From: Nitrospirota bacterium
GTDB lineage: Bacteria > Nitrospirota > UBA9217
Assembly: GCA_035516965.1 (NCBI GenBank)
Contig: DATIZR010000120.1
Span: forward strand, 967-64,966
DNA length: 64,000 bases
Direction of reading: 5' to 3'
A program made the translations under genes and the position numbers. Under the pieces are notes generated by a model. That model did not search any database. It was not told where the DNA came from and saw only the letters and a program-made list of their open reading frames with translations. Shown piece after piece: positions 32,001 to 55,668 of this stretch (the stretch's first letter is position 1; every line of letters starts with the position of its first letter).

Positions 32001-32039
32001 GGAGCCGGGTATTATCGGCCCGGGAAGGTCCGGCATCAT
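29022..32039 (-). CDS. treY: malto-oligosyltrehalose synthase
   Basis: ORF trimmed to the ATG at 32039 ('MMPDLPGPIIPGSTYRLQFN'), which makes an ATGA overlap with the treZ stop. Contains 'GITDIYASPYFKA...GSPHGYD', 'VLDIVPNHM' and 'GLRVDHADGL'. Confidence 0.9.
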   Translation of the reverse strand: MMPDLPGPIIPGSTYRLQFNQSFTFRDASRVIAYLHDLGITDIYASPYFKAKQGSPHGYDIVDHNQLNPEIGTESDHAAMIDELRRHGMGQVLDIVPNHMCIESPGNRWWSDVLENGRASTYARYFDVDWFPVKKELLNRILIPVLGDQYGKVLEDQQLSVAFAEGTFFVRYLEYKFPLQPTTYDFVLKQHLQELQDRLTQDDPHVAELLSIMTASKHLPSSLETGSATIEERNREKEVIKRRLDALYQGSSEIRVHIDGNLRAFNGTKGDPKSFDLLDELMNQQIYRLSHWRVATDEINYRRFFDVNGLAAIRMEDPAVFAAAHALIFRMVGSGSVTGLRVDHADGLYNPVEYLHWLQRGCLIHQVLARRSRGANEPLPADHLIEAERELGDGYNKAVLEDPGYKPFYIVVEKILTKSERMPADWPVSGSTGYVFLNSVNGIFVDGENAKAFDGIYDKFIHQKTEFTELMYEKKKLVMQLAMASELNTLARYLDELSEKNRHTRDFTLNSLKSAIVEVIASFPVYRTYINTWHVSDRDAQYIEQAASRAKRRNPAVNGSIFDFLEDVLLLRFPEDSSDKDKAEWLDFVMRFQQQTGPVMAKGVEDTALSVYNRLVSLNEVGGMPERFGMTPETFHGLNIERIKNWPHSLITTSTHDTKRSEDVRARINVLSEIPHEWGDRSRRWAELNRKKKSVIDGENMPDRNDEYLLYQTLVGVWPNEMPGQEAYDRFVQRIREYMLKEAREAKVNTSWINPNKAYEDALLAFIDAVLTSPGGNPFLNELLPFQQMVSWYGMFNSLAQTLLKITSPGVPDFYQGTDLWDYSLVDPDNRGPVDYGKRMGMLAGLKDLERRTGARILCRDLSTHMDDGRIKLYLTWKALNFRKSERKLFSEGEYVPLEADGPRSGNICAFERWSGQAAAITVVPRFLTRITSGLGALPFGASVWEGSALILPREAGTEYRNVFTGLVLSSALQGRGRTGLSLSDVFSDFPVALLERVERAPSFA

Positions 32040-33925
32040 GGCCCCTCCTCCTGACGAGCATAGAGGACGGCGCTGTGCGGGTTCATCTGAAGAAGTACCT
32101 CTCCGCCGTTCGGCGTTACCGTTTGTTCGGCGCGTTCCGATGTTCCGCCCCATTCGCTCGAGGAGGAATCGATCAGTTTATGCCATGCCCCCCCCGGCAG
32201 GACCGCCGAAACGGCCACCGGATCGTCGTTGAAAGAAAATAGAATGAGGACCTGGTTACCTTCCTGATAGCCCCGGATGAGAAGCACACGTTCCGGTTCA
32301 TAGCCCGTGACTTCCATGACTTCCTTCCTGAGGTTCGAGAGTGCGGGAAGGAACCTTCTCAGGTGCAGCAGCGCTCTGTAATATTCGAACAGGATCTTGT
32401 GCTTGCCCGAACTTCGGAGGCCCGGGTCGATCTTGGACCGGTGGAAGGTGTTTTCGTCCTGAGGGTCCGGGACCGTTCCCTTTTCTGAAAGAGGGGCTAG
32501 CTCCGATGACCGTCCCTCCCTCACCGCCCTGACGAGGGTCTCGTCGGTGTGATGTACGAAATACTGGAACGGCGACGGCTCACCGTATTCCTCACCCATG
32601 AACAGGAACGGCACAAAGGGTGAAAGGATGACGCAGCTTGCCGCCAGCTTGAGTTGTTCGAATGTTGCGATCGAGGAAAGCCGCTCTCCCAGCACCCTGT
32701 TCCCGACCTGATCGTGGTTCTGGGAAAAGACGATGAACCGGATCGCCGCTGCGTCTTTTGAGGAGTTCCCGTGCTTCCGTTTCCGGTATTGGGAATACTC
32801 GCCCGAGTAGACAAAGCCTTCCCGGAACGCCTTTGCCAGATGTTCGATCATTCCGAAGTCCTGGTAGTAGCCGTTTCGCTCACCGGTCACCAGTGCGTGC
32901 AGGGCGTGATGAAAGTCATCGTTCCATTGCGCGTCGATGCCGTATCCGCCCAGTCCCACCGGGTTGATGACCCTGACATCGTTCAAATCGCTCTCGGCAA
33001 TGAGGAAGATCTGCCGCCCCAGTTCATCCGCCCTCCGGTGCACGGCTGCTGCCAGTTGAGCCAGGAAATGCCTGGCCCCGAAATCATACATCCGGTCGAT
33101 GGTATCGAGACGAAGACCGTCGAAGTGGTATTCGGTGACCCAGTAGAGCGCGTTCTCGATGAAGTACGTACGCACCTCATCGCTGTACGGGCCGTCGAAA
33201 TTGACCGCTTCGCCCCAGGGCGTCCGGTATTTCGCGGTGAAATACGGGCCGAATGCACCGAGATAATTGCCCTCCGGTCCCAGGTGGTTGTAGACCACGT
33301 CGAGGATGACTGCGATCCCCTGCCGGTGGCAGGCGTCCACGAGCGCCTTCAATCCCGGCGGCCCGCCATAGGTGTTCTGGGGTGCGAAAGGATACACGCC
33401 GTCGTAGCCCCAGTTTCTGCTGCCGGGGAACTGGGCAACGGGCATGATCTCGATCGCCGTGACGCCCAGGTCCTTCAGGTGATCAAGGCGGGAAACAGCG
33501 GCCTCAAAGGTGCCGGCCGGCGTAAAAGCGCCGATATGCACCTCGTAGATCACGAGATCGCGAAAAGGCATGCCCTGCCAGTCATCGTCATTCCAATCGA
33601 ATTCGGCGGGATCGACCAGCTGCGATGGGCCATGGACTCCTTCGGGCTGGAACCGGGACGCGGGGTCGGGCCTGTCTTTTTCATCATTGAGCCGGTAAAC
33701 ATACTTGGCCCCGGGAACGAGGCCGTGCGCAACGGCATGCCAATAGCCGCGGCTGTTCTGCACCATGGGAATGACGCGCGTTTCAGGAAAAACAATCCTT
33801 ACGGCAACGCTTCTTGCAAAAGGCGCCCAGACCGTGAACCGACCGGTCACCTTCTCGTGGAACCGGGCGCCGAGCAAGCCTTCCCGGACCCTGCGCGCCC
33901 GACCCATAGTTCTTCCCTCAGGCAT
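32036..33925 (-). CDS. treZ: malto-oligosyltrehalose trehalohydrolase
   Basis: 629 aa GH13 protein. Contains 'GVTAIEIMPVAQFPGSRNWGYDGV', 'VILDVVYNHLGPEGNY', 'GLRLDTID', 'LIAESDLND' and 'FSQNHDQVGNR'. Confidence 0.9.
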   Translation of the reverse strand: MPEGRTMGRARRVREGLLGARFHEKVTGRFTVWAPFARSVAVRIVFPETRVIPMVQNSRGYWHAVAHGLVPGAKYVYRLNDEKDRPDPASRFQPEGVHGPSQLVDPAEFDWNDDDWQGMPFRDLVIYEVHIGAFTPAGTFEAAVSRLDHLKDLGVTAIEIMPVAQFPGSRNWGYDGVYPFAPQNTYGGPPGLKALVDACHRQGIAVILDVVYNHLGPEGNYLGAFGPYFTAKYRTPWGEAVNFDGPYSDEVRTYFIENALYWVTEYHFDGLRLDTIDRMYDFGARHFLAQLAAAVHRRADELGRQIFLIAESDLNDVRVINPVGLGGYGIDAQWNDDFHHALHALVTGERNGYYQDFGMIEHLAKAFREGFVYSGEYSQYRKRKHGNSSKDAAAIRFIVFSQNHDQVGNRVLGERLSSIATFEQLKLAASCVILSPFVPFLFMGEEYGEPSPFQYFVHHTDETLVRAVREGRSSELAPLSEKGTVPDPQDENTFHRSKIDPGLRSSGKHKILFEYYRALLHLRRFLPALSNLRKEVMEVTGYEPERVLLIRGYQEGNQVLILFSFNDDPVAVSAVLPGGAWHKLIDSSSSEWGGTSERAEQTVTPNGGEVLLQMNPHSAVLYARQEEGP

Positions 33926-33964
33926 AGTAACCTTCCGTTCTCCGTTCCGGCGATTTGCCCGGGG

Positions 33965-35176
33965 TCACAGTTCCAGGGTCCGCAGGCCGTCGTTCTCGAG
34001 GGAATACCAGATCGAGAGATAATCCCGCATCTGCCTCGTGATCAGGAAATTGTTCCGGACAAACTCCCTGGCCTGCTCGCCCATTTTCTTTCCCATGTCC
34101 GGGTTGTTCAGGAGCTGACGTATCCTGAACGCAGTCCCCTCAATGGAGTGGACAAGGAAGCCGGTAACGCTGTGCATGATCTGGAGCGGAATGCCGCCTA
34201 CGGCGCCGCCGATGACCGGTTTTCCCTTCCACATCGCCTCGGACACGGTCAGACCAAACCCTTCTTTCAGGGACTTCTGGAGCACGACCGTCGCCATCCG
34301 TTGCAGGGCATTGATGTCTCTGTCGCTGAACGGAGGAAGCATCAGGATGCGGATATCGGGATCATCGGCCGCATTCTGTTTTACTTCGTCAAGGACCTTC
34401 TCCCCTTCCGGGTCGTCCGAGGCCGGGCTGCCGGCAAGAACGAGCACGCAATCGTTGTATTTTTTCGCCATGCGGTACGCCTTGATCACGCCGATGGGGT
34501 CCTTGAACCGGTCGAACCGCGAGACCTGGAGGATGACCGGGCGGTCGAGGGGGATGTCGAACCTGTTCACCGAATCCTGGATCTCTTCCGGCGAAAGCTC
34601 GCGGTTCTTCTCGCTGACCGGATCGATCGAAGGCGGAACAATGAACTCGTGCATGCGCATGGCCTTCGCGAACTTCGATACGGAAAAGACGGCGGCGTCG
34701 TATTGCTCGCAGTACCGCCTGAGGGCGTCCCAGGTATCCCTGCGGGGATTGGAAACATCGATGTGGCATCTCCAGATCCAGGCGCCGCTCTTCCTGAAGA
34801 GGATCAGGGGCGCCGGTTGCGGGTCATGGATCAATACGGCGTCCGCTTCAAGGTCCAGGGTCTCGGCATTCCTTCTGTTGACCTCGAGATGGTAATCCCA
34901 CATGTCTTTTGTGAAGAACTCCGGTTCGCCCTGCAGCGAATTATGGATCTTCTTCGTCATGTCGTAAAAGGCCGCGTCGCCCTTGATGACCTCCCACCGG
35001 GCATCGATGCCGAACTCCTGGAGCATGGGTATCATGCGATGCAGGATCTCGGCGACACCGCCCCCCTCCCGGGTCGAGTTGATATGGAGGAACTTCCTCT
35101 TTTGAAACCGGCCGCTGAGCTTCTGCAGAAGAAGAAGGTCGCCTTTCGGCGCTATCCCATAGTATTGACTAATCAT
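33965..35176 (-). CDS. GT4 glycosyltransferase, TreT-like (trehalose glycosyltransferring synthase family)
   Basis: 403 aa. 'FLHINSTREGGGVAEILHRMIPML', 'IHDPQPAPL', 'WIWRCHIDVS', 'PPSIDPVSEKN', 'ILQVSRFDRFKDP' and 'SLKEGFGLTVSEAMWKGKPVIGGAVGGI' run closely parallel to archaeal TreT as I remember it. Confidence 0.7.
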   Translation of the reverse strand: MISQYYGIAPKGDLLLLQKLSGRFQKRKFLHINSTREGGGVAEILHRMIPMLQEFGIDARWEVIKGDAAFYDMTKKIHNSLQGEPEFFTKDMWDYHLEVNRRNAETLDLEADAVLIHDPQPAPLILFRKSGAWIWRCHIDVSNPRRDTWDALRRYCEQYDAAVFSVSKFAKAMRMHEFIVPPSIDPVSEKNRELSPEEIQDSVNRFDIPLDRPVILQVSRFDRFKDPIGVIKAYRMAKKYNDCVLVLAGSPASDDPEGEKVLDEVKQNAADDPDIRILMLPPFSDRDINALQRMATVVLQKSLKEGFGLTVSEAMWKGKPVIGGAVGGIPLQIMHSVTGFLVHSIEGTAFRIRQLLNNPDMGKKMGEQAREFVRNNFLITRQMRDYLSIWYSLENDGLRTLEL

Positions 35177-35891
35177 GACGACCTCCCGCGGTTGTCATCT
35201 CCTCTGTCACCTCGTCCCGGACAGCATGATGGACCCCGGCCGCTTCCATATCGACCTTCACTTCCGCCTCGAGGGCCTCGACGATCCGCTCCCGTATCCC
35301 TTCCAGCGAATGGACGAAGGGATCTATGGCCATCAGCTTGTCGGCGAGTTCTTTCTTCCCGAGGGCGTCGACGATCCATTGCGAAAAATCGTTCATCGCT
35401 CCGCCGAGGCGCAGCCGGGCATCGTAAAAATGATAGTACAGACAGCTTCGGTCCACGTACTTGATGGCGAGAAGGAATTCGGCGAGGTTCTTGGCACGGA
35501 CTCCCGCTGGAAAAACGAGCGTTACCGTCTCGTTGAAGTAGAACTCCTCGCCAACCCTGGTCTCCCTCGGCTCCGGGAACCGCTCGAGGTAGACCTGGAT
35601 CACACGCATCAATTCGACGCGCAATGCGTTCATATCGGGGAAATCATAGGGGTCCACATTAGAAAGCTCCTCCGCCAGTTCGCGCTCCTCCAGGTCCTGT
35701 CCCGCCCACTCGGCGAAGTCATTGGTATATTCCAGGATATGGCCTTTCAGAAAATACTGGTACGTATGGTGATACAGGGACCGGTCGCTTATCGTTGCCA
35801 GCCGGTTACGAAGTTCGGCAAGCGTTTTTGCCGTACTGCCTGTCGCTTTCAGCAGGGTTATGCATTGCTTGAATTCAAATGGCTCACGCAT
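35169..35891 (-). CDS. conserved hypothetical protein co-transcribed with the TreT-like GT (possibly DUF5752-type)
   Basis: ORF trimmed to the ATG at 35891 ('MREPFEFKQC'). 8-nt overlap with the TreT-like gene. The family name is a recollection and was not verified. Confidence 0.5.
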   Translation of the reverse strand: MREPFEFKQCITLLKATGSTAKTLAELRNRLATISDRSLYHHTYQYFLKGHILEYTNDFAEWAGQDLEERELAEELSNVDPYDFPDMNALRVELMRVIQVYLERFPEPRETRVGEEFYFNETVTLVFPAGVRAKNLAEFLLAIKYVDRSCLYYHFYDARLRLGGAMNDFSQWIVDALGKKELADKLMAIDPFVHSLEGIRERIVEALEAEVKVDMEAAGVHHAVRDEVTEEMTTAGGRHD

Positions 35892-36168
35892 AGGCTTTGC
35901 CCCTTTACGGTCTGCGCTGATGACCAAACAAGTGCGAACAGAACGGGCGAACAAAATATTGCAACAGCAGTTGGTCTCAGCGTCGAACCGCAATACCTCT
36001 CATGACAGGCCCCGCTAGGGAGCTTGCCACATAGAGATAATTAAAATATAGATATCGAGATAGGTTTTGTCAAAAAGCCGACAAAGGGAAGCGATACTAA
36101 AGACTGAGGAAATATTCTGGGAATGATTATGTGAAGGGTTATGTTAACGATAGGATGCCATGCCGTTC

Positions 36169-37602
36169 TTATTCTTTTCCCTTCGGTTCAAAATCGTCCT
36201 TGATCCTGAGGAACGTCGGGAGACTCCTGATCATCCTGAGGGCGCTGTGGGGCGACTTGAACATGAGCGGCACGAACTTGCGGGTCCAGTTCCTGCCTGT
36301 GTAGAACTGTTTCACGAACTGCTTGTATAATTCATCGAGCCGCTCCTTGGACGAAATTCCTTTCGGTACGAACACGAAATTGAGGCAGTTCATGAGGTCC
36401 CATTTCTCCTCGAAAACGCCTTCTTCCCGGATGGTCTGGTAGATCGGCGAGCCGGGGAAGGGCGTGAACTTGGTCATGTTCATGTCATCGAGCTCGAGGC
36501 CGTTGATAAAGTCCGTCGTGACCTTGACGGTCTCTTCGGTCTCGCCCGGGAGCCCCATCATGAACAGTCCCTTTGCGCGGAGCCCGGCCTTTTGAATGCG
36601 CCGGACCGTCGAGCGCATCTCGGGGAAATCTATTTTGGTCTTGTGCCTCGCGAGAATCTCCGGCGCGCCGGACTCGATGCCGACGCTGACCATCCAGCAG
36701 CCGGAGGCCTTGAGCATCCTGAGCATTTCGTCATCGGCGTGGCCCACGCGTACGGCGCAATTGAACGTCATCTTGAGCGGTTTCTCCCGCAGGAGATTGC
36801 AAAACTTCTCGATCCGTTCGCGGTTGAAGGTGAACAGGTCATCGTAGAAGAACACGTGCCGGATGTGGAACCGCTTCTTGAGGAACGCCATGTGCTCGTA
36901 AAGATACTCGGCCGAATTGAACCGGAAGCTCCTGCGGTATACGGAGCGGTCGCAGTAGGAGCACTGGTAGGGGCAGCCGCGGCTCGAGATTACCGTTGCG
37001 GTCGGCGTTTTCGGATAGTTGAACAGTGCTGCCTCGAAGCTTCCGGGAAATCCGTCGAGTTTATGGTAGGCGGGAAAAGGAAGCGAGTCAAGCTCGCAGA
37101 GATCGGTCCTGATCCCGTTGTCTCTGATCGTGCCCCCATCGCGAAAGACAAGCCCCTGGACTGTCTCCGGCTTCGCACCCGCAGCCAGCTCAGCCATGGC
37201 CTTCTCGCCTTCTCCCGTCACGAGGAGGTCAATGGCGGGAAATCGCTCCAGGATACTGCCGCGCAGCGCCGACACATGCACACCGCCAACAACGATCTTG
37301 ACACCGGGCCAGGACTCCTTGATCGCCTCTGCCTGATGGTAAGCGTTCAGGAAGCTCGACGTGACGGCCGTAAAGCCGACCATGTCGGGCCTGAAATCGG
37401 AAACGCGGGCAAGGACATCGGCCGTTCCGACGCGCGTCACCGGCCCCCGGCAGTCATGGATGGCGGTTTCGATCCCGCGCTGCTCCAGGTAGGCGGCGAT
37501 CGAGAGGAGACCGTTCGGCGCCATGCGGATGGCAGTCTCGCTCTTGTCATCACTCCCCTCGACCCAGTTCGAGCCGAAGGGGTTCACGAGCAGGACCCTC
37601 AT
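36169..37602 (-). CDS. B12-binding-domain radical SAM protein (class B)
   Basis: 477 aa. N-terminal Rossmann-like 'MRVLLVNP...NGLLSIAAYLEQRG...DMVGFTAVTS...IVVGGVH'. Radical SAM 'CPYQCSYC'. ATGA overlap with the upstream ligase gene (37599..37602). Confidence 0.8.
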   Translation of the reverse strand: MRVLLVNPFGSNWVEGSDDKSETAIRMAPNGLLSIAAYLEQRGIETAIHDCRGPVTRVGTADVLARVSDFRPDMVGFTAVTSSFLNAYHQAEAIKESWPGVKIVVGGVHVSALRGSILERFPAIDLLVTGEGEKAMAELAAGAKPETVQGLVFRDGGTIRDNGIRTDLCELDSLPFPAYHKLDGFPGSFEAALFNYPKTPTATVISSRGCPYQCSYCDRSVYRRSFRFNSAEYLYEHMAFLKKRFHIRHVFFYDDLFTFNRERIEKFCNLLREKPLKMTFNCAVRVGHADDEMLRMLKASGCWMVSVGIESGAPEILARHKTKIDFPEMRSTVRRIQKAGLRAKGLFMMGLPGETEETVKVTTDFINGLELDDMNMTKFTPFPGSPIYQTIREEGVFEEKWDLMNCLNFVFVPKGISSKERLDELYKQFVKQFYTGRNWTRKFVPLMFKSPHSALRMIRSLPTFLRIKDDFEPKGKE

Positions 37603-45954: not shown

Positions 45955-47718
45955 TCAGAAGCGCGGACAGGTCCTGCAGGCCTCGGGAGGGTCATCACCT
46001 GTCATCCGCTGACGATGGTCTCTGAACACATCTCCATTCCATATCGCGGAGAGGGGCTGGGCAAGGAGATTTCCCGCCTTGATGCCGGGTTGGCAATCGC
46101 ACAGCGTTGCCTCGCCCTGGACATTGATGGGGATGGTCTGCCACGGCGAAGCGCACCAGGAGCGGCGTGATGACCGCATGTACAGCTGATCAGGAGGAAG
46201 CAGCAGGAACTTATTGTACCTCTTCCAGAGACCGAACTCCTCCAGCCCCCTCACGGAAAGAACGGGCAGGTTCTTCCGGAAAGCGCTGGATACGGCTGTC
46301 CGCAACATCGAGGCTGCATGTACGCTGCCGTTCTTCCAGAGCGTCCGCCCGATGTTTTCCCCGAAATTCAGGTCCGTCAGCATCATCACGTGAACGCCCA
46401 GGCCGGAGACGAGTTCCATGAGCAGGTCGAGCGAATCGATGGTTTCCGTCGAGACCGCGGAAAAGACGGCAATCGATATTTCCCTCGTGGAACGCGAGAT
46501 ATCGACGAACCGCCTTATGTTAGCAACCACTCGGGCAAGGTCCGTTCCGGGCCGTACCGCTGCGGCAAGGTCCTGAGTACCCGCGTCGATGCTGAATGCG
46601 ATCGATTCGAGACCCGCGTCAAGAAGACTGCGAGAGAGCCCTTCGTCCAGGAGCATCGCGTTCGTCACCAGCGCTGTTCTTCTTCCCCGGGATGATGCCT
46701 CCCGGACAAGATCCGCCACCTGCGGATGCATCAGCGTTTCGCCGAGGCCAACCAGTGTTACCCGATACGCATGCGGAAGCAGGTCGAGTATGGCGGAGAA
46801 GACTCCTTTCGGCATGTCCCTGGGATCGACGCCCCTCAGGGTGCGGGCGCAATGGACGCAGCGCATGGTGCACCGTGTGGTGATCTCGATGTTAGCGATA
46901 ACCGGCTCAGTCGGAACGATCGGACTGAGCCGGGACTGCTGACCGGCCGCGCTTTGTCCGCTGGGGCTCAGGGCAAGATGATGCGCGGAAAACGGCGACA
47001 CGTCAAGAAAACGGCCCGCTTCGGGTTCGACGGACAGGATGCGTTCTAGTACGGCCCTATCCTCGCGCGACGGCACCCGCACGACATCATCGATGGCCCT
47101 CGCAACAAGATCAACAGCAAGCGTGCAGTTCGGACCCTGCAAGACATCGTGTCCCGCGCCGGGGACGGTCGCCGCACGAACGGGTCCCCGGAAGTAGTCA
47201 CGCGACCAGTCTGCTGTATCGGCGCCAGGGACGAGCGCATCCCGCTCTCCCTGCAGGACAAATACCGGGAATGAACCCTTGAACCGGGATTTCCCGACTT
47301 TCTTGATCATTGAGACCATGGCCGCAACCGAGGTGAACGAAATCTGGCTCTTGCCTTTGCGGTGGTCCGACCATCGAGCGAAAGAGTTTGTGTCGATTTT
47401 TTTTGGAACGGAAGCAAGCACGAGCAGCAAGGGTTCTGCGCCCGTCTCCGCCAGCGCGTTCAGGGCAATGATGCCGCCGGTCGAGTGTCCGAAGAGCACG
47501 ATGTCCAGGCCCCGCTGCTGGGCGTCTCTGACTGCTTCGACCACGGACCCGGTAAAGGACCTCATATCGAAGGCGGGCACCCCGCGCGATGCATGACCCG
47601 GAAGCCGCACGGTTCGCACGGAATCCAGTCCTTTGCGCCCGCGAAGCGCATCGGCAAGGAGGGTAAGGTCGTCCGGGGACCCCGAGTAACCGTGGACAAG
47701 AATAACAGTGGCGGGCAC
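45955..47718 (-). CDS. fusion protein: alpha/beta hydrolase (N) + radical SAM/SPASM-like domain (C)
   Basis: 587 aa. N-terminal 'ILVHGYSGSPDD' with nucleophile elbow 'GHSTGG'. Residues ~283-290 'CTMRCVHC' (46849..46872). C-terminal Cys-rich 'CASPW...LCDCQP...EACRTCPRF'. Confidence 0.75.
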   Translation of the reverse strand: MPATVILVHGYSGSPDDLTLLADALRGRKGLDSVRTVRLPGHASRGVPAFDMRSFTGSVVEAVRDAQQRGLDIVLFGHSTGGIIALNALAETGAEPLLLVLASVPKKIDTNSFARWSDHRKGKSQISFTSVAAMVSMIKKVGKSRFKGSFPVFVLQGERDALVPGADTADWSRDYFRGPVRAATVPGAGHDVLQGPNCTLAVDLVARAIDDVVRVPSREDRAVLERILSVEPEAGRFLDVSPFSAHHLALSPSGQSAAGQQSRLSPIVPTEPVIANIEITTRCTMRCVHCARTLRGVDPRDMPKGVFSAILDLLPHAYRVTLVGLGETLMHPQVADLVREASSRGRRTALVTNAMLLDEGLSRSLLDAGLESIAFSIDAGTQDLAAAVRPGTDLARVVANIRRFVDISRSTREISIAVFSAVSTETIDSLDLLMELVSGLGVHVMMLTDLNFGENIGRTLWKNGSVHAASMLRTAVSSAFRKNLPVLSVRGLEEFGLWKRYNKFLLLPPDQLYMRSSRRSWCASPWQTIPINVQGEATLCDCQPGIKAGNLLAQPLSAIWNGDVFRDHRQRMTGDDPPEACRTCPRF

Positions 47719-47720
47719 GA

Positions 47721-48944
47721 CTAAGACTCCGTAAGAGCGGTCGCAAGGGCGGTCACGCCGCCGTAGCGCGCCAAGGTGGTCTGGGCCTGCAGAAGCTGTC
47801 CTGAAAGACCGGACTTCACCAGCAGGCTGCTGATCCTCACGTGGACCTCATCGTCAGACATCCGTTCGAGGGCCTCCATGTAGATCTGCGGATTTCCCTG
47901 AAAAGGCTGGGGTGGTATCAGCCGTAGACCGCACCCCATCCTCTCGAGACAGACGCCGCTGTGGGCCTGCTCGGGCTGAAACGGCATGACGATCACGGGG
48001 ATCCGGTTCTGGAGCGATTCAAACACCGTAAGCTGTCCGCCGTGGGTGACCACGAGCGAGGCATGGGGCAGGATTGCTGCGAGCGGTGCAAAGGTCATGG
48101 AGACGACCCGGGGATCAGCAGGCACGCAGCCGAGGAATTCCTTCTGGCCGCCGCCTGCGAGCAGGACCGTATACCCTCTGTCGAGCAGCAGTTGGACGAT
48201 CCGCAGCACGGGAGTGAAGGAGACTGTGCAGGTGCCGAAGGCGACGACTGCAAGCGGTTGTCCGCCCGCCAGCAGCAAGTCGATATCAACAGGGTCGGCA
48301 GGCCATCGGTTCCAGGAAATCGGACCGACGTGAAGGAGGTCCTTCCGCTGACGCAGCGGAGCGAACTCGGGAAAGTCCCAGAGAAAGGTGCGCTCCCCCA
48401 GCAGGCTGTTCCGGATGTCTCCGTTGCTCTTCGGCAGTCCGAAAGCAGTGATCGACGCTCCGAGCTTTGATCCGGCGTACCGGAAGAAGCCGTCGAGGAT
48501 GATGCGCTGCATGTCGCGCCCGGGTTCGTCTTCCGCGAACCCGAGGACGTCCTCGGAAACCGGAGTCATGCAGCCGCAGATCAGGGAGTCAACGGGCACG
48601 CCCGCAATGGCCGCAGAGGCCTTGAGCGTGAACCGGAATACACCGAGCACGCGGTCCGGCCGGTATTCCCTCAGGAGAGAGACTTCGGCATGGATGCAGG
48701 CAGCAATCCTGCGGGGGTCCCGGAACCATTCCACGGAAGGGAAGCCCGAATCGTCATTTTCCTGGATATCAGGCAGAACGAAATGCTCGATCGAAAGACG
48801 CGTCAGGAACGCTGAATGTTTCCTGCTCACCGCTATCCGCGCTTCATGGCCTCTCTCGATGAGCGCCTCGCTCAGGGCGAGGCATTTCGCCACGTGGGAA
48901 AGCGCGTTGTTGCCCGGAACGAGGAGATATTTTTTTCGGTTCAT
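47721..48944 (-). CDS. glycosyltransferase family 1 (MGT/UDP-glycosyltransferase-like)
   Basis: 407 aa. C-terminal nucleotide-sugar motif 'VTHGGQLTVFESLQNRIPVIVMPFQPEQ'. Confidence 0.75.
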   Translation of the reverse strand: MNRKKYLLVPGNNALSHVAKCLALSEALIERGHEARIAVSRKHSAFLTRLSIEHFVLPDIQENDDSGFPSVEWFRDPRRIAACIHAEVSLLREYRPDRVLGVFRFTLKASAAIAGVPVDSLICGCMTPVSEDVLGFAEDEPGRDMQRIILDGFFRYAGSKLGASITAFGLPKSNGDIRNSLLGERTFLWDFPEFAPLRQRKDLLHVGPISWNRWPADPVDIDLLLAGGQPLAVVAFGTCTVSFTPVLRIVQLLLDRGYTVLLAGGGQKEFLGCVPADPRVVSMTFAPLAAILPHASLVVTHGGQLTVFESLQNRIPVIVMPFQPEQAHSGVCLERMGCGLRLIPPQPFQGNPQIYMEALERMSDDEVHVRISSLLVKSGLSGQLLQAQTTLARYGGVTALATALTES

Positions 48945-49029
48945 GTAGGCTTCCGGATCTTGTTCAGGGCTTCTTTCTGTTCCCGTAAACGTAGCTGGGC
49001 TGGCTATCGTGTCTGACGGTCCCGGGCGA

Positions 49030-50421
49030 TCACGATGTACCTGGACTCGTGAGCCGGGAAGAGGTTCCGCCCTCGGAATGTGGCGCCCGTATCAGATGAT
49101 CCGATTCCTCGGTCAATACCGAGTCGATGATGTAGTCGCAAACGTCTTCCACGAAAAACGCGCCGTATTTCGATAAACGAACGAACCCATTCTCCTGCAG
49201 GAGACACCCAAAACCTCCGAGCTCCGAAAAGAGCCGGGAGAAGACATCCCGGGGGTCTGCGGCAAACCTGCCGTGAAACCGGCGGATATCGACGCCTTCA
49301 GCCAGCTGCAGGCTCAGCAAGAGCGTCCGGAACATCTGTTCCCGTCTGGTCAGGTCGATATATCTGCCGATCGGAAGCCCGCCTTTTCTGATGATGTTCG
49401 TATACGAGGAAAGCTCTTCATACTTATCATAGCAGATCGTTTTGGTATACGACCGCGCCCGCGAACCGAATGCGATGATCGGTATCTCTTTCAACCAGTA
49501 ATAGCGATAGGGCCATTGCGCGTCATTCGTAAAACTGCCATTCTGCTCGTATCCGTTCGCGCTCATCCATTCCTGCGTCCTGAACACGATGTCAAAAAGA
49601 GTGTCATTGCTCACGACCAGGCCGGGGTGTTCTTTGTAGAGCTTGACGATCAAGGGGTTCACGATCTCGTGCCTGATATACTCGACCGAATCAGGACGGA
49701 TTCCCTCAAGGATGGCCAGGTCAGCTTCCACACTGTCCATGGTCTGTCCGGGAAGTCCGGTCATCATGTCGATGTTGATCGATATCCCGGCATCCTGCAC
49801 GGCCCTCACGACGTCTGCGACCTGTCCCCGGGTGTTCTTTCTGTTGCAGCGAGCGAGGATCTCCTGGTCAAAGGTCTGGCAACCGATACTGAGCCTGTTG
49901 ATGCCGATATTCCGCAGTTCCCGTACCCGCTTTGCATCCGAGAGCGTGGCGGGATGCGCTTCCGACGTTACGTTGCACGCATGACTGAATCCGATGATAG
50001 AGGAAAGCTTTTCCAGTATACGGTTGATGTCGCGGCTGGGAAATGACGTGGGGGTTCCGCCGCCGAAATAGATGCATCGCGCCTTCTTGCCAGAGAATAC
50101 TCCGCGGCCCGCCACCAATTCTATCTCTTTCAGCAAATTCTCCAGATAATCATCCTGGGCTTCCCTGCTCACGGGATGAGGGAAGGAATTGCAGAACAGA
50201 CATTCGGAGAAACAGAACGGAAGGTGGACATAGAGCAAGAGCTCTTCTGCTACCAGGCTCTCTCTTACCCGCTCCAGAAAGCAGTCGGTCTGCGACGGGG
50301 CCAGTATCTTGAAGTGGTGAGGAATGAACAGGTCCGGCTGGCTCTTGGTGTAATCTACGGAGCCGTAGAAGAGTTTCTCTCGTATGATAGTCAGCGCTTC
50401 ATTGTGTATCATACTTCCCAT
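49030..50421 (-). CDS. HemN-like (oxygen-independent coproporphyrinogen oxidase family) radical SAM protein
   Basis: Start set at the ATG at 50421 (or 50412). Contains 'YVHLPFCFSECLFCNSF', 'IYFGGGTPT', 'RLSIGCQTFD' and a HemN_C-like tail. Confidence 0.8.
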   Translation of the reverse strand: MGSMIHNEALTIIREKLFYGSVDYTKSQPDLFIPHHFKILAPSQTDCFLERVRESLVAEELLLYVHLPFCFSECLFCNSFPHPVSREAQDDYLENLLKEIELVAGRGVFSGKKARCIYFGGGTPTSFPSRDINRILEKLSSIIGFSHACNVTSEAHPATLSDAKRVRELRNIGINRLSIGCQTFDQEILARCNRKNTRGQVADVVRAVQDAGISINIDMMTGLPGQTMDSVEADLAILEGIRPDSVEYIRHEIVNPLIVKLYKEHPGLVVSNDTLFDIVFRTQEWMSANGYEQNGSFTNDAQWPYRYYWLKEIPIIAFGSRARSYTKTICYDKYEELSSYTNIIRKGGLPIGRYIDLTRREQMFRTLLLSLQLAEGVDIRRFHGRFAADPRDVFSRLFSELGGFGCLLQENGFVRLSKYGAFFVEDVCDYIIDSVLTEESDHLIRAPHSEGGTSSRLTSPGTS

Positions 50422-50606
50422 TTCTCGAACGCCTACATGGACTTCCCTTGAAGACGCTGATCGTGGTCGACCTTCTTGACCGGAGCATTCGCACAGGACA
50501 GCGAGCCCCGGCCCCGGGAGCGGCGCCACGAATCAGCTGAACGGGGACCCCTGTGTACATACCCCGGCGCGCTTTCCGGATCGTCGCACCCTTCTCCCGG
50601 AGCTCT

Positions 50607-50885
50607 TTACTTCTTGTTATCGTAGATGAAGTTGGCGATGGTATTGATGGAGTGGAATATCTCCTTGCCCTGATCCATGTTCTTGACTTCGACGCCGAAG
50701 TTCCGCTGCAGCAGCACGACGATCTCCACGGCGTCCAGAGAGTCGAGCCCGAGCCCTTCCCCGAAGAGAACCTCATCGTCCTTGATGTCCGCCGGTTTGA
50801 CATCCTCGAGCGAAAGATCGCGGACGATCATTTCCTTGAGGTCCTTGCGGATTTGCACCAGTTCCTGTTCCTTTGCTTCTGCCAT
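50607..50885 (-). CDS. acyl carrier protein
   Basis: 92 aa. Contains 'LGLDSLDAVEIVVLLQRNFGV'. Confidence 0.88.
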   Translation of the reverse strand: MAEAKEQELVQIRKDLKEMIVRDLSLEDVKPADIKDDEVLFGEGLGLDSLDAVEIVVLLQRNFGVEVKNMDQGKEIFHSINTIANFIYDNKK

Positions 50886-50969: not shown

Positions 50970-51869
50970 TCACTCATTGGAACGCCACATGTCGCGGAAC
51001 ACGAACCACTGGTATGGATAACGATCCGCGTAGTCTTCCAGGACGCGGGCATATTCCTGGACACAGGCCCTGATCTGTTCCTGCTTCTCCCTCGCTCTCC
51101 CGCGCGGCGGTTCGATCACGTGGGTGACGTCGGTCAGGTACTTCCTGCGCCCGACCTTCGCCGAGAGCAGTACGACTACGGGGCACTGGGCCGCGCCCGC
51201 GATCGTGAACGCTCCGTAGGGAAAGGAAACGGGTCCGCCCAGAAGCATGGCTTCCTGGGAACTGTACCCGTACGTCCGGTCCCCCATGATCGAAACAAGT
51301 TCGCCGCGGCTGATCGCCTTCATGGCTTCGACCACACCGCCCAGCGTGTCATCGGTGTGCAGGATGCGTATCGCACTCTGGTCCCGGTCGATGCCCAGCG
51401 ACTCCCGGACCGCGGCGTTGTCCTCTGGCCGCATCAGCAGGTGGACGGTCTTTCCCAGCCTCCGCAGAACGGTCATGGCCACCTGCCAGTTTCCAACGTG
51501 GGCCGTCAGCAGGACCAGTCCCTTCTCGCCTGAAAGGAGGCCCTTCAGCCGTTCCAGGCCCTGGATGTCGATCTCGATGCTTGTTCCGCCGGCAATCACG
51601 TAATACCGGTCGAGGAGGCTTTTGCCCTGGCTGACGAACAGCAGGTAAACATCGAGCAGCCGCCGGAGCCGGCCGTGGCCCGGGAACCGGCGGTTCACAT
51701 AAGCCAGGCTCGCCCTGACTGCAGGGCGGTCGAATGCCAGGTAGTAGAGCCCCACCAGGTACAGCAGGCCGTAGGCCCCGGCGAGTCCGGAGACGCGGAC
51801 CGCCGTTCTGAAGAACCAGAACCCGATCCTGTTCCCCCGCTTCCGGTCAGTTGCCCTTGCCTGCGACAT
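50970..51869 (-). CDS. lysophospholipid/lipid A-type acyltransferase (LPLAT, LpxL/HtrB-like)
   Basis: Start set at the ATG at 51869 ('MSQARATD'). N-terminal TM segment. 'LLTAHVGNWQVA' corresponds to the HxxxxD/E box of the family, with Q at the acidic position. Confidence 0.7.
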   Translation of the reverse strand: MSQARATDRKRGNRIGFWFFRTAVRVSGLAGAYGLLYLVGLYYLAFDRPAVRASLAYVNRRFPGHGRLRRLLDVYLLFVSQGKSLLDRYYVIAGGTSIEIDIQGLERLKGLLSGEKGLVLLTAHVGNWQVAMTVLRRLGKTVHLLMRPEDNAAVRESLGIDRDQSAIRILHTDDTLGGVVEAMKAISRGELVSIMGDRTYGYSSQEAMLLGGPVSFPYGAFTIAGAAQCPVVVLLSAKVGRRKYLTDVTHVIEPPRGRAREKQEQIRACVQEYARVLEDYADRYPYQWFVFRDMWRSNE

Positions 51870-53046
51870 AGACGTACCTTGCCTTCCGGATCGCAAGCGC
51901 GGCAAAGAAGACGATCGCGCCGGTCAGGAGGGCGAGGAGCGGCGCGATGACCAGCGAACCGAGAAGCCATTCATAGAGCCGTGCGGAGAACTGCTCGAAC
52001 ACTGTCTGGAACGAGAGATCGGTGAGCCATTGCCCGTGGCGCATATAGTATCCGACCTCGATGCAGAGCGCCGGCACCACGGGCGGCATCGCGATATGCT
52101 GGACGTTCAGGGACACGATCTTGTTCAGGTTCAGCCGCAGGGACACGTAGAGGATGACGAGCGAATGCACGAACAGAAGCGGCAGGACCGCCAGAAAGAC
52201 GCCAACTGCCGCGGACAGGGCAAGCCCCTCCGGAGTGGCGTTCTCCCTGATCAGCATCTTCAGCGCCTTCCCCGGGTGTCGCAGGAGGGAGAGGTTGAGT
52301 GCCGTTGCGGGCTTCACCAGTTTGTGATGCGGCACCGGCAGCAGTCGCCTGCCTACCAACATGGAATGGATGCCCGTGAGGCGAAGATTGTCCAGGAACG
52401 GCCGGAAGCTCGATACGCGCTCCCCGGGCTTCGGATAGCATACGGAGACGGGAACCGTTTTCAGCGTCAGTCCCGCCCAAGACGCCTTGGCAAGGACCTC
52501 GGCCTCGAAGTCGTAGCGGCTGCCCTTGAAGGTGAGCTGGTTCAGATAGCGGACCGGATAGGCGCGGAAGCCGCTCTGGCAATCATCAACCGTCACCCCG
52601 GTCTCCACCTTGAGCCAGAAGTTCGCGAAGGCCCTGCCGAACCTGCTCGAAGCCGGCACGTTCCCGGTATTGAAGTCCCGGGATCCGATGATGACGCTCC
52701 TGTCGTCCTCTTCGATTACCGGGAAAAACCGCCGGACATCGCTCGGGTCGTGCTGCCCATCAGCGTCGATGGTGATCATGAAGACGCCGCCGCGCTCCTC
52801 GATAGAGCGCGAGGCCGTGAGGATCGCCTGTCCTTTGCCGAGGTTCTTTTCGTGCTTCAGCATCACAACAGCAAGGCCGCCCAGCAGTGATGAGACGTCG
52901 GCATCCGTGCTGCCGTCGTCAACCACGATCACGTTTGAGAGCATGGCGAGGCATTGTTCCACGACGGTCCTGATGGTGGCCGCATTGTTATAGACCGGGA
53001 CCGCGATCCAGACGCGGCCGTCCGTGGCGTGCTTACTTAGGTGCAT
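51847..53046 (-). CDS. glycosyltransferase family 2 fused to a C-terminal polytopic (DUF2062-like) membrane domain
   Basis: ORF trimmed to the ATG at 53046 ('MHLSKHATDGRVWIAVPVYNN'). Contains 'VVDDGSTD' and 'TIDADGQHDP'. The C-terminal ~130 aa is hydrophobic. Confidence 0.75.
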   Translation of the reverse strand: MHLSKHATDGRVWIAVPVYNNAATIRTVVEQCLAMLSNVIVVDDGSTDADVSSLLGGLAVVMLKHEKNLGKGQAILTASRSIEERGGVFMITIDADGQHDPSDVRRFFPVIEEDDRSVIIGSRDFNTGNVPASSRFGRAFANFWLKVETGVTVDDCQSGFRAYPVRYLNQLTFKGSRYDFEAEVLAKASWAGLTLKTVPVSVCYPKPGERVSSFRPFLDNLRLTGIHSMLVGRRLLPVPHHKLVKPATALNLSLLRHPGKALKMLIRENATPEGLALSAAVGVFLAVLPLLFVHSLVILYVSLRLNLNKIVSLNVQHIAMPPVVPALCIEVGYYMRHGQWLTDLSFQTVFEQFSARLYEWLLGSLVIAPLLALLTGAIVFFAALAIRKARYVYVAGKGN

Positions 53047-54400
53047 GCCGCGCCCTCTCCTTGTTCTTCCCGGGAAGGAGCAGGTCCCACATCGGGCCCG
53101 TGTACCCGAGCTTGTGCAGGATCTGCAGGCTGTTGTCGTACGCGTCAGGCGGGAACACGCAGTGCCGCACACCTTCGAATGCCCTTGTCAGCCGTTCCTC
53201 AAGCTGCTTTTTGTCCACAGCGGGAGACAGATAGTAGACCGGATGGAGCATTCCTTCATCGGGCTTGATGAGGTTCTCCTTGACCGCGAGTCGGGCGAGC
53301 GGCGTGTCCGGGAGGATCCGGATCCCCATGAAGATGAACACGACGCATTTCTGCAGGGACAGGATGTTCCGAATGCCCTCCTCCACGGTCTCGGGCGTCT
53401 CGCCGGGCCCCCCGAACATAAAAAAGTGGGAAGTGGAGATTCCGTGGCGCGCGAACAGGTCATTGCATTCGATGACGTCCCGGAAGGTGAAGTTCTTGCC
53501 CATCTTCTTGAGCGTGGTGTCGCACGCGGCGTCGGCGCCTACTTCTGCAGCCGCGAAACCGGTCTTTTTCATGCGCTCCACGATCTCGTCGGTCAGCCCC
53601 CGGGGCTTGAAAAAACCCGTCCAGGGAATGGAGACGCTCCTGCGCTGCATCTCGTCGATCACCTCAAGGTAGGCACCCTCGTCATCATTGAAGACCGAGT
53701 CGACGAAGAAGAGGTATTTGGTCTTGAACCTGTCCCTGAGCAGCTCGATGTCGTCGACCACGGCCCGGGGCTCGCGCCGCCTGAGCTGCGAGCCTTCGAG
53801 CACGGGATAGGTGCAGTACACGCACTTATATGCGCAGCCGCGCTTCGTCTGAACGGACGCGATGTTGCCGCTGTGCAGATAGAACTCGAGCAGCCGTTCG
53901 TCGTACAGCGCCGACCCGATCCTGTCGCCGGCGATCCGCGCCGAGGGCCCGATGATAGGGTCGCGGGGATAGACACCCCGTGCCGCATTGTCCGCGAACT
54001 CGACGGCCAGGACCTCTCCCTCGCCGACGATGCCGTAATCCGCACCGGTCTCCTGCAGAATCAGCTCGGGGACCAGCGAGAAGCCGGCGCCGCCGAGCAA
54101 CACCTTTGCGGTCGATACCTTTTTCACCGTGGACACGATGTTCTTCACGTTCTGGATATAGTACTGCTCGCTCACGAGGTTCACATTGTCGATGTTGCGG
54201 ACCGAGATGCCGACGAGATCGGGCGCGTACTGCTTTACCTCGCTCCCGATGGCTTCGAGGGACGTCTTCTGCTGCAGAAAATCCGCCTGCAGGACCTCGT
54301 GGCCGGCATGGGTGAGGGCCGCCGCGATCATGCTCACGCCAAGCGGGTAGATCGGATAGGGAGACGTGGTCACATTCGCCGATATAAGAAGGATCTTCAT
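53033..54400 (-). CDS. B12-binding-domain radical SAM protein (lipid-cluster type)
   Basis: ORF trimmed to the ATG at 54400 ('MKILLISANVTTSPYPIYPLGVSMIAAALTHAGHEV'), which forms ATGA with the upstream stop. Radical SAM 'CAYKCVYC'. Confidence 0.8.
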   Translation of the reverse strand: MKILLISANVTTSPYPIYPLGVSMIAAALTHAGHEVLQADFLQQKTSLEAIGSEVKQYAPDLVGISVRNIDNVNLVSEQYYIQNVKNIVSTVKKVSTAKVLLGGAGFSLVPELILQETGADYGIVGEGEVLAVEFADNAARGVYPRDPIIGPSARIAGDRIGSALYDERLLEFYLHSGNIASVQTKRGCAYKCVYCTYPVLEGSQLRRREPRAVVDDIELLRDRFKTKYLFFVDSVFNDDEGAYLEVIDEMQRRSVSIPWTGFFKPRGLTDEIVERMKKTGFAAAEVGADAACDTTLKKMGKNFTFRDVIECNDLFARHGISTSHFFMFGGPGETPETVEEGIRNILSLQKCVVFIFMGIRILPDTPLARLAVKENLIKPDEGMLHPVYYLSPAVDKKQLEERLTRAFEGVRHCVFPPDAYDNSLQILHKLGYTGPMWDLLLPGKNKERARHAPK

Positions 54401-55668
54401 CGCGAGGTCCCCGTTACCATGTCCTTTTGCCACTTCCGCCGCCGCAGACGCGCCCCCTGGTAGGTGCCGTCCGCCTTTTCCTTCTCGATGACCTTCAGGA
54501 ACAGCTTCGCCATCCTGAGGTTCTGGCTGCTTTCCTGGTAAAAGGTGTCCCAGGCGTAGTAATAGAGGTCCTGAAGCCTGGACGGCGTCATCCTGGCCGG
54601 CTGATAGACCACCTTTCCTCCGGTGTAGTTCCGCCAGTCGTTCGACAGGATCCTTCCCTCCTTCGTCAGCGTTTCCCGGATCGGTGTGTGGGGGAACGGG
54701 GTCAGGATCGTGAACTCGGCAAGGTCGAGGTTGATCTCGAGCAGGAAATCCACAAGCCGCCTGATGTAGTCCTCGTCCTGTTCGTCGGTCCCCAGGATGA
54801 TCGTGCCCTCGACGCCGATGCCCCGCTCCTGCAGCCGCTTGACGCGGTTCCGGATGTAATCCGACGTGTCGAAGATCGCCTGGTACACGTACCAGCAGCC
54901 TGCCTGCGCCGCGAGATCCAGGATCTCGTCATTGTCCTTGATGGGATGGCAGACCCACTTCTTCTTGAGCGGGATCAGCGCCCGGAAGAGGTCTTTCTCC
55001 CACTGGTCGTTCTGCGCCATGGAGTTGTCCACGAAGAAGAGCCGGTTGTTGTCGATGGCCGCGACCTCGCGCACGACGTCGTCGATCGGCCTCGGACGGA
55101 ATTCACGTCCGCCGAGGAACGGCGTGCAGCACGGGAAACAGTTGAACCGGCAGCCGCGCGAGGCATGGATGAGGTCCACCATCTGGACGCCCCGGTAGTT
55201 GTACCGGTCGCGTTTGAGGATGTTCCGCCGGGCAGGGCCGACCAGCTTCATGTCCGGAAAATTCCACTGGTAGTCGTAGACCTTCCTGAGTTGTCCCCTC
55301 TTCAGGTCATCGATGACCTGGCCGAAACGGCCCTCTGCCTCGCCCAGGAACACGGCATCGGCGTGCGTCTTTGTCTCCTCGGCATGCAGCATGGTCCCGA
55401 TGCCGCCGAAGATGACCGGAACGCCTCTGCTCCGATAGCGGTCGGCGATCTCCCACCCCCTGGGGATCTGGCAAGTAAGCATGCAGGAGATGGCGACGAA
55501 GTCGACGGGTTCGTCGAAATCGATGTTTTCCACGTGCTCGTCGATAAAGCCCAGTTCGCAGTCGTCCGGCACAGTCGACGCAAAACAGATCGGCCCGTGC
55601 GGGGGGAGGTGAAATTCCGTCTGCCGTTCCAGTTTCGGCCATTGGGGGTATATCAGTTTAATCTTCAC
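54397..55668 (-). CDS. B12-binding-domain radical SAM protein
   Basis: 423 aa with a GTG start (GTGA overlap with the upstream gene). Contains 'VDFVAISCMLTCQ...VPVIFGGIG' followed by 'CRFNCFPC'. Confidence 0.75.
   Translation of the reverse strand: MKIKLIYPQWPKLERQTEFHLPPHGPICFASTVPDDCELGFIDEHVENIDFDEPVDFVAISCMLTCQIPRGWEIADRYRSRGVPVIFGGIGTMLHAEETKTHADAVFLGEAEGRFGQVIDDLKRGQLRKVYDYQWNFPDMKLVGPARRNILKRDRYNYRGVQMVDLIHASRGCRFNCFPCCTPFLGGREFRPRPIDDVVREVAAIDNNRLFFVDNSMAQNDQWEKDLFRALIPLKKKWVCHPIKDNDEILDLAAQAGCWYVYQAIFDTSDYIRNRVKRLQERGIGVEGTIILGTDEQDEDYIRRLVDFLLEINLDLAEFTILTPFPHTPIRETLTKEGRILSNDWRNYTGGKVVYQPARMTPSRLQDLYYYAWDTFYQESSQNLRMAKLFLKVIEKEKADGTYQGARLRRRKWQKDMVTGTSR

Follow-up and report, generated by a model that had tools for sequence, protein, structure and literature searches.

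We report that a HemN-like radical S-adenosylmethionine (SAM) gene from a Nitrospirota bacterium is an optional insert of an aryl-polyene-like, or "ladderane-type," lipid biosynthesis cluster, a cluster family marked by TIGR04072, the "lipid biosynthesis B12-binding/radical SAM protein." The gene encodes a protein of 463 amino acids (aa) and lies at positions 49030-50421, on the minus strand, of a stretch of 64,000 nucleotides (nt) of contig DATIZR010000120.1 (assembly GCA_035516965.1). This stretch is referred to below as the window, and feature coordinates refer to it unless a locus is named. Judged by sequence comparison, the encoded protein belongs to a distinct, previously unnamed clade of HemN-like radical SAM enzymes and is predicted to be no heme enzyme. 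We tentatively propose, with a probability of roughly 0.4, that it is a dedicated, optional enzyme that would tailor the orphan lipid of the cluster by adding one carbon to an unsaturated acyl chain.

Linkage of the HemN-like gene to a lipid cluster

In the window, the gene is flanked upstream by an acyl carrier protein gene (ACP1; 50607-50885) and downstream by a GT1-type glycosyltransferase gene (47721-48944). Both assignments come from a domain search and agree with an earlier note on this DNA, made from the letters and their open reading frames. When one genome per species was scanned with a sequence pattern, 38 loci with orthologs were recovered, all in metagenome-assembled genomes (MAGs), from Nitrospirota, Desulfobacterota, Aminicenantes, and other groups, and in most of these loci cluster genes lie within 10 kb. 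In a sample of 301 genomes of the phylum, with an ortholog threshold of at least 60% identity (the next matches drop to 31%), the gene was found in 9 genomes and TIGR04072 scored over its cutoff in 61. In eight of the nine ortholog genomes, TIGR04072 and the ortholog share a contig and are no more than 25 kb apart; completeness of the ninth genome is 83%. In a Desulfobacterota class, the ortholog was present in 7 of 181 genomes, with TIGR04072 in all seven carriers versus 94 of the 181 genomes overall. When both samples are taken together, 15 of 16 ortholog genomes also have TIGR04072. Ten genomes, which overlap the other samples, have no recognizable cluster gene next to the ortholog, and seven of these still hold TIGR04072. 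The HemN-like gene is tied to the TIGR04072 cluster, and this linkage and co-occurrence bear out the suggestion in the earlier note that it belongs with a fatty-acyl or polyene-type cluster.

The gene as an optional insert in a conserved backbone

We compared 40 to 60 kb around TIGR04072, some stretches being incomplete, in ten genomes without the HemN-like gene and seven genomes with it. The backbone genes and their order are the same in nearly all 17 clusters (a rearrangement is seen in one cluster of the set lacking the gene), and the sole systematic difference between the two sets is the HemN-like gene. It occupies three or more differing cluster positions, depending on the lineage. In four other Nitrospirota genomes, the insertion point is between ACP1 and a polysaccharide deacetylase and second ketosynthase (KS) gene, inside a block of GT2 and LPLAT genes; the cluster in the window lacks a deacetylase, and the gene is flanked there by ACP1 and GT1; in three genomes, the gene is found at the 3' end of the cluster; and in Desulfobacterota, it stands beside ketoreductase (KR), amine-oxidase, and FabF-like genes or beside an HpnJ-like B12 radical SAM gene.

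Other cluster genes were considered as co-varying partners and rejected. The GT1 gene and the gene for an alpha/beta-hydrolase (ABH)-radical SAM fusion form a pair in five genomes of the phylum sample, two of which have the HemN-like gene, and the polysaccharide deacetylase, a PagL-like gene, and the HpnJ-like B12 radical SAM gene each occur both with and without it. The window and a same-genus relative (G164) lack the deacetylase that most relatives have after ACP1 (compared, G220, G151, G154, and G170; loci L159, L165, L162, and L161); in the window, this place is taken by the HemN-like gene, GT1, and the ABH-radical SAM fusion (47721-50421). In Desulfuromonadales-type genomes (loci L028, L033, and L034 and genome G723), the HemN-like gene follows flavoprotein and Fe-S subunit genes, often together with HpnJ-like B12 radical SAM and PagL-like genes.

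The GC content at third codon positions (GC3) of the HemN-like gene is 0.68, the lowest of the 24 cluster genes, and its overall GC content of 0.54 is nearly the lowest of the 24 (window mean, 0.59). A tyrosine recombinase gene (Phage_integrase plus a SAM-like N-terminal domain) adjoins it in five related Desulfobacterales loci (within L037-L042), a hint of mobility of the gene as a cassette. Lateral gain would fit both the lowest GC3 and the recombinase neighbors.

Reading frame, motifs, and a separate clade

Numerous stop codons interrupt the plus-strand frame at 49030-50421, which places the gene on the minus strand. Its open frame spans 49030-50529 and opens with GTG. The ATG at 50421 gives the 463-aa product, identical letter for letter to database protein P0002; an alternative ATG at 50412 gives 460 aa, as in P0003 (95% identical), and the N termini of homologs fit the two starts about equally. 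The frame, the translation, and the Pfam domains Radical_SAM (3.8e-22) and HemN_C (4.3e-09) support the earlier assignment to HemN-like radical SAM proteins, which had been made from three motifs: HLPFCFSECLFCNSF, now placed at residues 66-80, IYFGGGTPT at residues 117-125, and RLSIGCQTFD at residues 176-185. The codons of C70-x3-C74-x2-C77, the [4Fe-4S]/SAM motif, lie at 50191-50214 on the minus strand, and the position of the fourth Cys of HemN is Ser79. A scan for promoters and terminators around the gene gave no signal exceeding the shuffled background, and no RNA data set was found among the listed holders of the stretch, the DNA holders being wetland and peat metagenomes.

A search against 1.84 billion representative proteins returned the family at 1014 and 521 bits, a few sister proteins at 360 to 214 bits (32 to 40% identity), and, below these, generic HemN-like proteins at about 190 bits and less. 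In a FastTree phylogeny of 142 rows, the family received support of 98 to 99, and the family plus its sisters received support of 99 with a stem of 0.50; in an IQ-TREE phylogeny of 43 rows (LG+C20), the family plus sisters had an SH-aLRT support of 100 and a stem of 0.64. The references in these trees were HemW, E. coli HemN, and E. coli ChuW, with Jaw5, C10P, NosN, TbtI, and CoeI not among the rows. HemW proteins, including the copy of the same genome, formed a separate clade with support of 99 to 100 across trees (100 in IQ-TREE), and E. coli HemN and ChuW appeared as distant long branches. The nearest outgroup resembles the uncharacterized STM4012 family, and the other neighbors match no curated family.

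A genome scan with the sister alignment recovered mostly the target family and generic HemW, a genome scan with P0127 found no close relative, and all that a search of the Protein Atlas yielded was clusters of a generic HemN-like and ChuW-like kind. A search for longer, fused versions of the orthologous family gave none. Outside the family, P0136, P0137, P0139, P0271, and P0272 (900 to 1181 aa) carry a HemN-like domain after an N-terminal part of about 480 residues, and P0136 has two Radical_SAM stretches.

Tests against heme and quinone enzymes

Public sources name homologs of the gene "oxygen-independent coproporphyrinogen III oxidase," a database naming that invites the view that the gene has a housekeeping role in heme metabolism, its product being a HemW-type chaperone or a coproporphyrinogen dehydrogenase, and only happens to sit in the cluster. 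The protein scored below the cutoff of each NCBIfam model considered: HutW (TIGR04107), the best-scoring model, gave 176.2 bits against a cutoff of 400 (the control, E. coli ChuW, scores 567), STM4012 gave 153 against 380, HemW (TIGR00539) gave 140.3 against 205.4, and HemN (TIGR00538) gave 128.8 against 324.95. Motif tests were run on 30 family members, with E. coli and own-genome controls that gave the expected answers. The HemW-defining motif CXHNX2YW (PMC13495026) was found in none of the 30 members and in both HemW controls; likewise, the fourth Cys of HemN (CX3CX2CXC) was present in the E. coli HemN control and in 0 of 30 members. No heme-uptake genes, as in a ChuW/HutW-type context, were found in the annotated surroundings, and, in line with the earlier note, none of the annotated flanking genes from 27070 to 63584 belongs to the heme pathway.

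At 97.7% completeness, the same genome encodes a true HemW, located on contig C40 (293.8 bits versus a cutoff of 205.4), and an AhbD heme b synthase (525.7 bits versus a cutoff of 500). It has no HemN over the cutoff, a point that would favor a heme role for the gene studied here if taken by itself; however, since the genome holds HemW and AhbD and no such HemN, heme synthesis is accounted for by the siroheme route. The ortholog is, moreover, missing from 292 of the 301 genomes in the phylum sample, and a HemW-sized paralog is also present in each of four other ortholog-bearing genomes. The earlier note had taken grouping with HemW or HemN, in a genome lacking another copy, as the mark of a housekeeping gene, and the opposite was found on both counts. 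Given the failed motifs and model cutoffs and the placement outside the HemW clade, we regard a housekeeping heme function as very improbable.

A role as a menaquinone C-methyltransferase of the MenK/MqnK/MenK2 type was weighed in the same way. MenK-type enzymes, found in anaerobes, are class C methylases of the HemN-like kind (PMC10114718), and in three related Desulfuromonadales-type loci, the HemN-like gene follows genes for flavoprotein and Fe-S subunits like those of succinate dehydrogenase or fumarate reductase. Of the six MenK/MqnK/MenK2 motifs from Wilkens et al. 2021, tabulated in PMC10320005, five were found in 0 of 30 family members; the generic one, RxSxGxQxFxxxxL, was found in all 30. 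The distribution of the gene tracks the lipid cluster, not quinone synthesis, and such a function is hardly credible. A heme role and quinone methylation are thus largely excluded for the HemN-like gene.

Predicted structure and active site

An AlphaFold2 model built on 35 sequences had a mean pLDDT of 92. Its only full-length match in the PDB was HemN (1OLT), with a TM score of 0.72 over 416 columns and 24% identity; the next PDB matches scored at most 0.41. Invariant in the family are CX3CX2C, GGGTP, and the equivalents of HemN Y56, H58, F68, E145, Q172, R184, and D209; in the numbering of the protein itself, the conserved residues are Y64, H66, F76, G120-P124, E154, R176, Q182, R194, and D218. 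The invariant set includes the alignable contacts to the second SAM (SAM-II) of NocN, Y34, Y96, R153, and D196, as taken from the crystal structure paper (PMC12871812). As the cluster cysteines and SAM-contact residues are invariant, the two-SAM apparatus is plausibly intact. The general features of class C enzymes (HemN fold, CX3CX2C, GGGTP, and contacts to the first SAM [SAM-I] and SAM-II) are present in the family; these features are necessary and insufficient.

Comparison with known enzymes sets the family apart from its nearest structural relative. HemN (CgdH; 1OLT) shares with it the fold, CX3CX2C, GGGTP, the seven residues listed above, and an N-terminal extension. HemN, however, has a fourth Cys, an RNFQGY loop (F310 and Q311) that is deleted in the family, an I329 that is an invariant Arg in the family, and a heme role. 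Arginines specific to the family are R321 and R323. The radical SAM core of NocN (PDB 9P2U) is about as similar (E value of 1.1e-24, phmmer over the core) as that of HemN. HemW/RSAD1 proteins belong to the same superfamily and have neither the fourth Cys nor the RNFQGY loop, but members of the family exceed them in length by about 85 residues, have a conserved N-terminal region, and lack CXHNX2YW.

The likeness to HemN raises the alternative of HemN-type chemistry without carbon transfer, in which hydrogen abstraction by the SAM-methylene radical would lead to oxidative decarboxylation or desaturation of a lipid intermediate (for example, carboxyethyl to vinyl). HemN is the best structural relative, the N-terminal extension of about 60 residues is as in HemN and unlike HemW, and in the revised HemN mechanism, hydrogen is abstracted by means of the same two-SAM apparatus (PMC10114718). 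This chemistry nevertheless seems improbable here: the HemN-specific fourth Cys and RNFQGY loop are absent, the trees place the family apart from E. coli HemN (itself on a long branch), and all characterized catalytic HemN-like enzymes except HemN and HemZ are C1 transferases (PMC10114718).

A candidate acyl-chain tailoring enzyme

Those HemN-like enzymes that are catalytic and take no part in heme synthesis are class C methylases, which bring a SAM-derived methylene radical onto an sp2 carbon to form methyl, cyclopropane, or related products, and one of them, Jaw5, is proposed to act on ACP-bound enoyl thioesters (PMC10114718). By analogy, SAM-I would be split on the [4Fe-4S] cluster to yield a 5'-deoxyadenosyl radical, and a SAM-methylene radical would then add to an sp2 carbon of an enoyl or polyenoyl substrate, probably a carrier-bound acyl intermediate, with S-adenosylhomocysteine leaving. 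The product would carry one additional carbon as a methyl branch, or as a cyclopropane if the adduct closes as in Jaw5. Suitable sp2 carbons are expected because the cluster encodes KS and chain length factor (CLF) proteins, a KR, and dehydratases. Carriers of the gene would make a +14-Da variant of the lipid made by noncarriers.

Several observations weigh against this proposal. The RNFQGY loop and I329 of HemN are not kept in the family, although ChuW, a proven methyltransferase, also lacks the loop. The SAM-contact residues are kept in HemW too, and because HemW keeps the same core, C1-transfer catalysis is unproven by the conserved residues. The earlier note had proposed a check of the second SAM-binding residues; these proved to be conserved but do not distinguish catalysts from HemW. 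ACP1 is a fixed backbone gene and no private partner of the HemN-like gene. In the Desulfobacterota class, the ortholog and TIGR04072 are often on separate contigs; in G723 (G723:C1:2685769-2687118), the HemN-like gene is 1.7 Mb away from the main cluster; and in three MAGs with the gene, of which the completeness is not reported, TIGR04072 was not seen.

The sister proteins bring the remaining adverse evidence and point to a different substrate. The closest outgroup, P0123 (a metagenome protein of 752 aa with 40% identity), is a fusion of a HemN-like part (residues 3-445) to a GT2 domain (residues 468-675); a metagenome scan for this fusion gave weak glycosyltransferase-domain matches only. 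The gene of the sister P0125 immediately precedes a GT4 gene in a glycan-type locus (L176:4440-14270) that contains genes for a U32 (UbiU-like) protein, an unassigned open reading frame, the HemN-like protein, GT4, a phosphodiesterase, a radical SAM/SPASM protein, a PMT_2 GT-C glycosyltransferase, and a nucleotidyltransferase. This locus has no KS or ACP gene, and among 301 genomes from the phylum of P0125, only one contained P0125-like genes. As sister proteins are fused to or encoded beside glycosyltransferases, tailoring of the head group stays a live rival, in which the enzyme would act on, or in concert with, the glycosyl or aminosugar part assembled by the glycosyltransferase, deacetylase, and HpnJ-like genes, through C1 addition or hydrogen abstraction on a sugar-derived intermediate. 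The orthologous family offers further hints in this direction: the gene abuts GT1 in the window, is inserted next to the deacetylase within the GT2/LPLAT block in the four other Nitrospirota clusters, and has an HpnJ-like B12 radical SAM gene as its immediate neighbor in five Desulfobacterota-type loci. On the other hand, ordinary sugars lack the sp2 carbons that known class C enzymes attack (PMC10114718), and no glycosyltransferase is a constant neighbor within the orthologous family. The GT1/ABH-radical SAM pair is independent of the HemN-like gene (overlap in two of five genomes), the deacetylase is present with and without it, and the sister-clade evidence comprises two cases only. We consider head-group tailoring unlikely, if still worth keeping in view as the main rival reading.

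Addition of one carbon to an unsaturated acyl chain remains our preferred reading. The earlier note had raised the installation of a cyclopropane or methyl branch on such a chain, and this idea is sustained in part: the link to the cluster and the retention of the SAM residues stand, but the reaction on the chain is putative, HemW shares the residues, and the sisters are linked to glycosyltransferases. The more specific proposal of a Jaw5-like cyclopropanase that would work with a discrete type II KS/ACP system on enoyl or polyenoyl intermediates of an anaerobe envelope lipid is a long shot. Jaw5, from the jawsamycin pathway of Streptoverticillium, is similarly a HemN-like enzyme in an acyl-chain assembly pathway, proposed to use ACP-tethered alpha,beta-unsaturated thioesters with no partner methyltransferase (PMC10114718 and PMC13459092); here, Jaw5 is likened by description. 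No class I methyltransferase (a C10P/C10Q- or YtkT-type partner) was found among the 24 annotated cluster genes in the window, and none of the five cluster genes identified beyond the window end resembles a methyltransferase. Jaw5 differs in serving an iterative type I polyketide synthase (PKS) in an actinomycete, whereas the gene studied here is dispensable and accompanies type II KS/CLF/ACP genes in Gram-negative anaerobes. CoeI is a HemN-like methylase that serves a type II PKS (PMC9714029), but the substrates of NosN/NocN, ChuW/HutW, and CoeI are heteroaromatic rings, heme, or anthraquinone, not lipid.

Features of the surrounding cluster

The cluster occupies 36169-64000 on the minus strand, with all genes co-directional to the window end. 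Its marker gene, TIGR04072, lies at 53033-54433 on the minus strand (624.1 bits versus a cutoff of 360). ACP1, also on the minus strand, has a GLDSLD motif (PP-binding, 6e-09) and is present in clusters without the HemN-like gene as well. GT1 (minus strand; Glyco_tran_28_C and UDPGT over their cutoffs) is an accessory gene paired with the ABH-radical SAM gene, itself an accessory gene on the minus strand at 45955-47718, whose product is an alpha/beta-hydrolase fused to a radical SAM/SPASM domain. Further genes encode a second ACP, two KS/CLF-like pairs, ApeI- and ApeP-like dehydratases, a 4HBT thioesterase, LPLAT, a GT2-DUF2062 protein, a lipoprotein, an MMPL-like exporter, a LolA-like carrier, an AMP-ligase, a flavin adenine dinucleotide (FAD) oxidoreductase, and a 441-aa protein with no assignment; the cluster holds seven radical SAM genes. 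It extends about 6.5 kb beyond the window end, in the first 6.6 kb of locus L175 (G000:C120:64000-81849), with AMP-ligase/LuxE-like, PlsC-type acyltransferase, FabF-like KS, amine-oxidase/phytoene-desaturase-like, and KR genes, these five being identified by similarity to already-annotated relatives only. Directly downstream of the cluster, at 29022-35993, are genes for a TreT-type trehalose synthase, a DUF5752 protein, and two alpha-amylase-family proteins (one of 1043 aa).

The cluster family unites GT2, polysaccharide deacetylase, and HpnJ-like B12 radical SAM genes (51847-53172 and 36169-37602 in the window; the deacetylase, for example, at L012:11585-12523). The HpnJ-like gene scores 185 bits against TIGR03471, under the cutoff. 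HpnI, HpnK, and HpnJ form the route from N-acetylglucosamine to the cyclitol ether head group in hopanoids. The set found here recalls this route and is a lead that hints at the head group of the lipid.

Synteny of this cluster family between anammox bacteria, Desulfotalea, and Geobacter was described by Rattray et al. (2009) (PMC2649909), and antiSMASH labels it "ladderane" in many non-anammox phyla, where its product is unknown (PMC9902471). The clusters of that study (Kuenenia kuste3335-3352, Desulfotalea, and Geobacter) have TIGR04072, a FabF-like KS, a phytoene-desaturase-like flavoenzyme, and ACPs, all of which are also present here. They differ with regard to the HemN-like gene, since the terms "HemN" and "coproporphyrinogen" have no occurrence in the paper, and in the clusters studied here, the gene is an optional extra in a minority. 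Our full-text searches turned up no paper that ties a HemN-like enzyme to aryl polyene or TIGR04072-type clusters.

Implications

The separation of this family from the heme enzymes corrects a systematic misannotation as coproporphyrinogen III oxidase. If the cyclopropanase proposal were true, Gram-negative bacteria would have a second way to cyclopropane lipids, a radical one that needs neither oxygen nor a phospholipid-bound olefin and that is switched on in some strains by the gain of a single gene. The family occurs in Nitrospirota, Desulfobacterota, and further phyla of anaerobes, within a cluster family that has been an orphan since 2009. With its clean presence or absence on the same backbone, the gene offers a practical handle on this orphan lipid: a comparison of the lipids of carriers and noncarriers should reveal both the reaction and a mass tag for the lipid itself.

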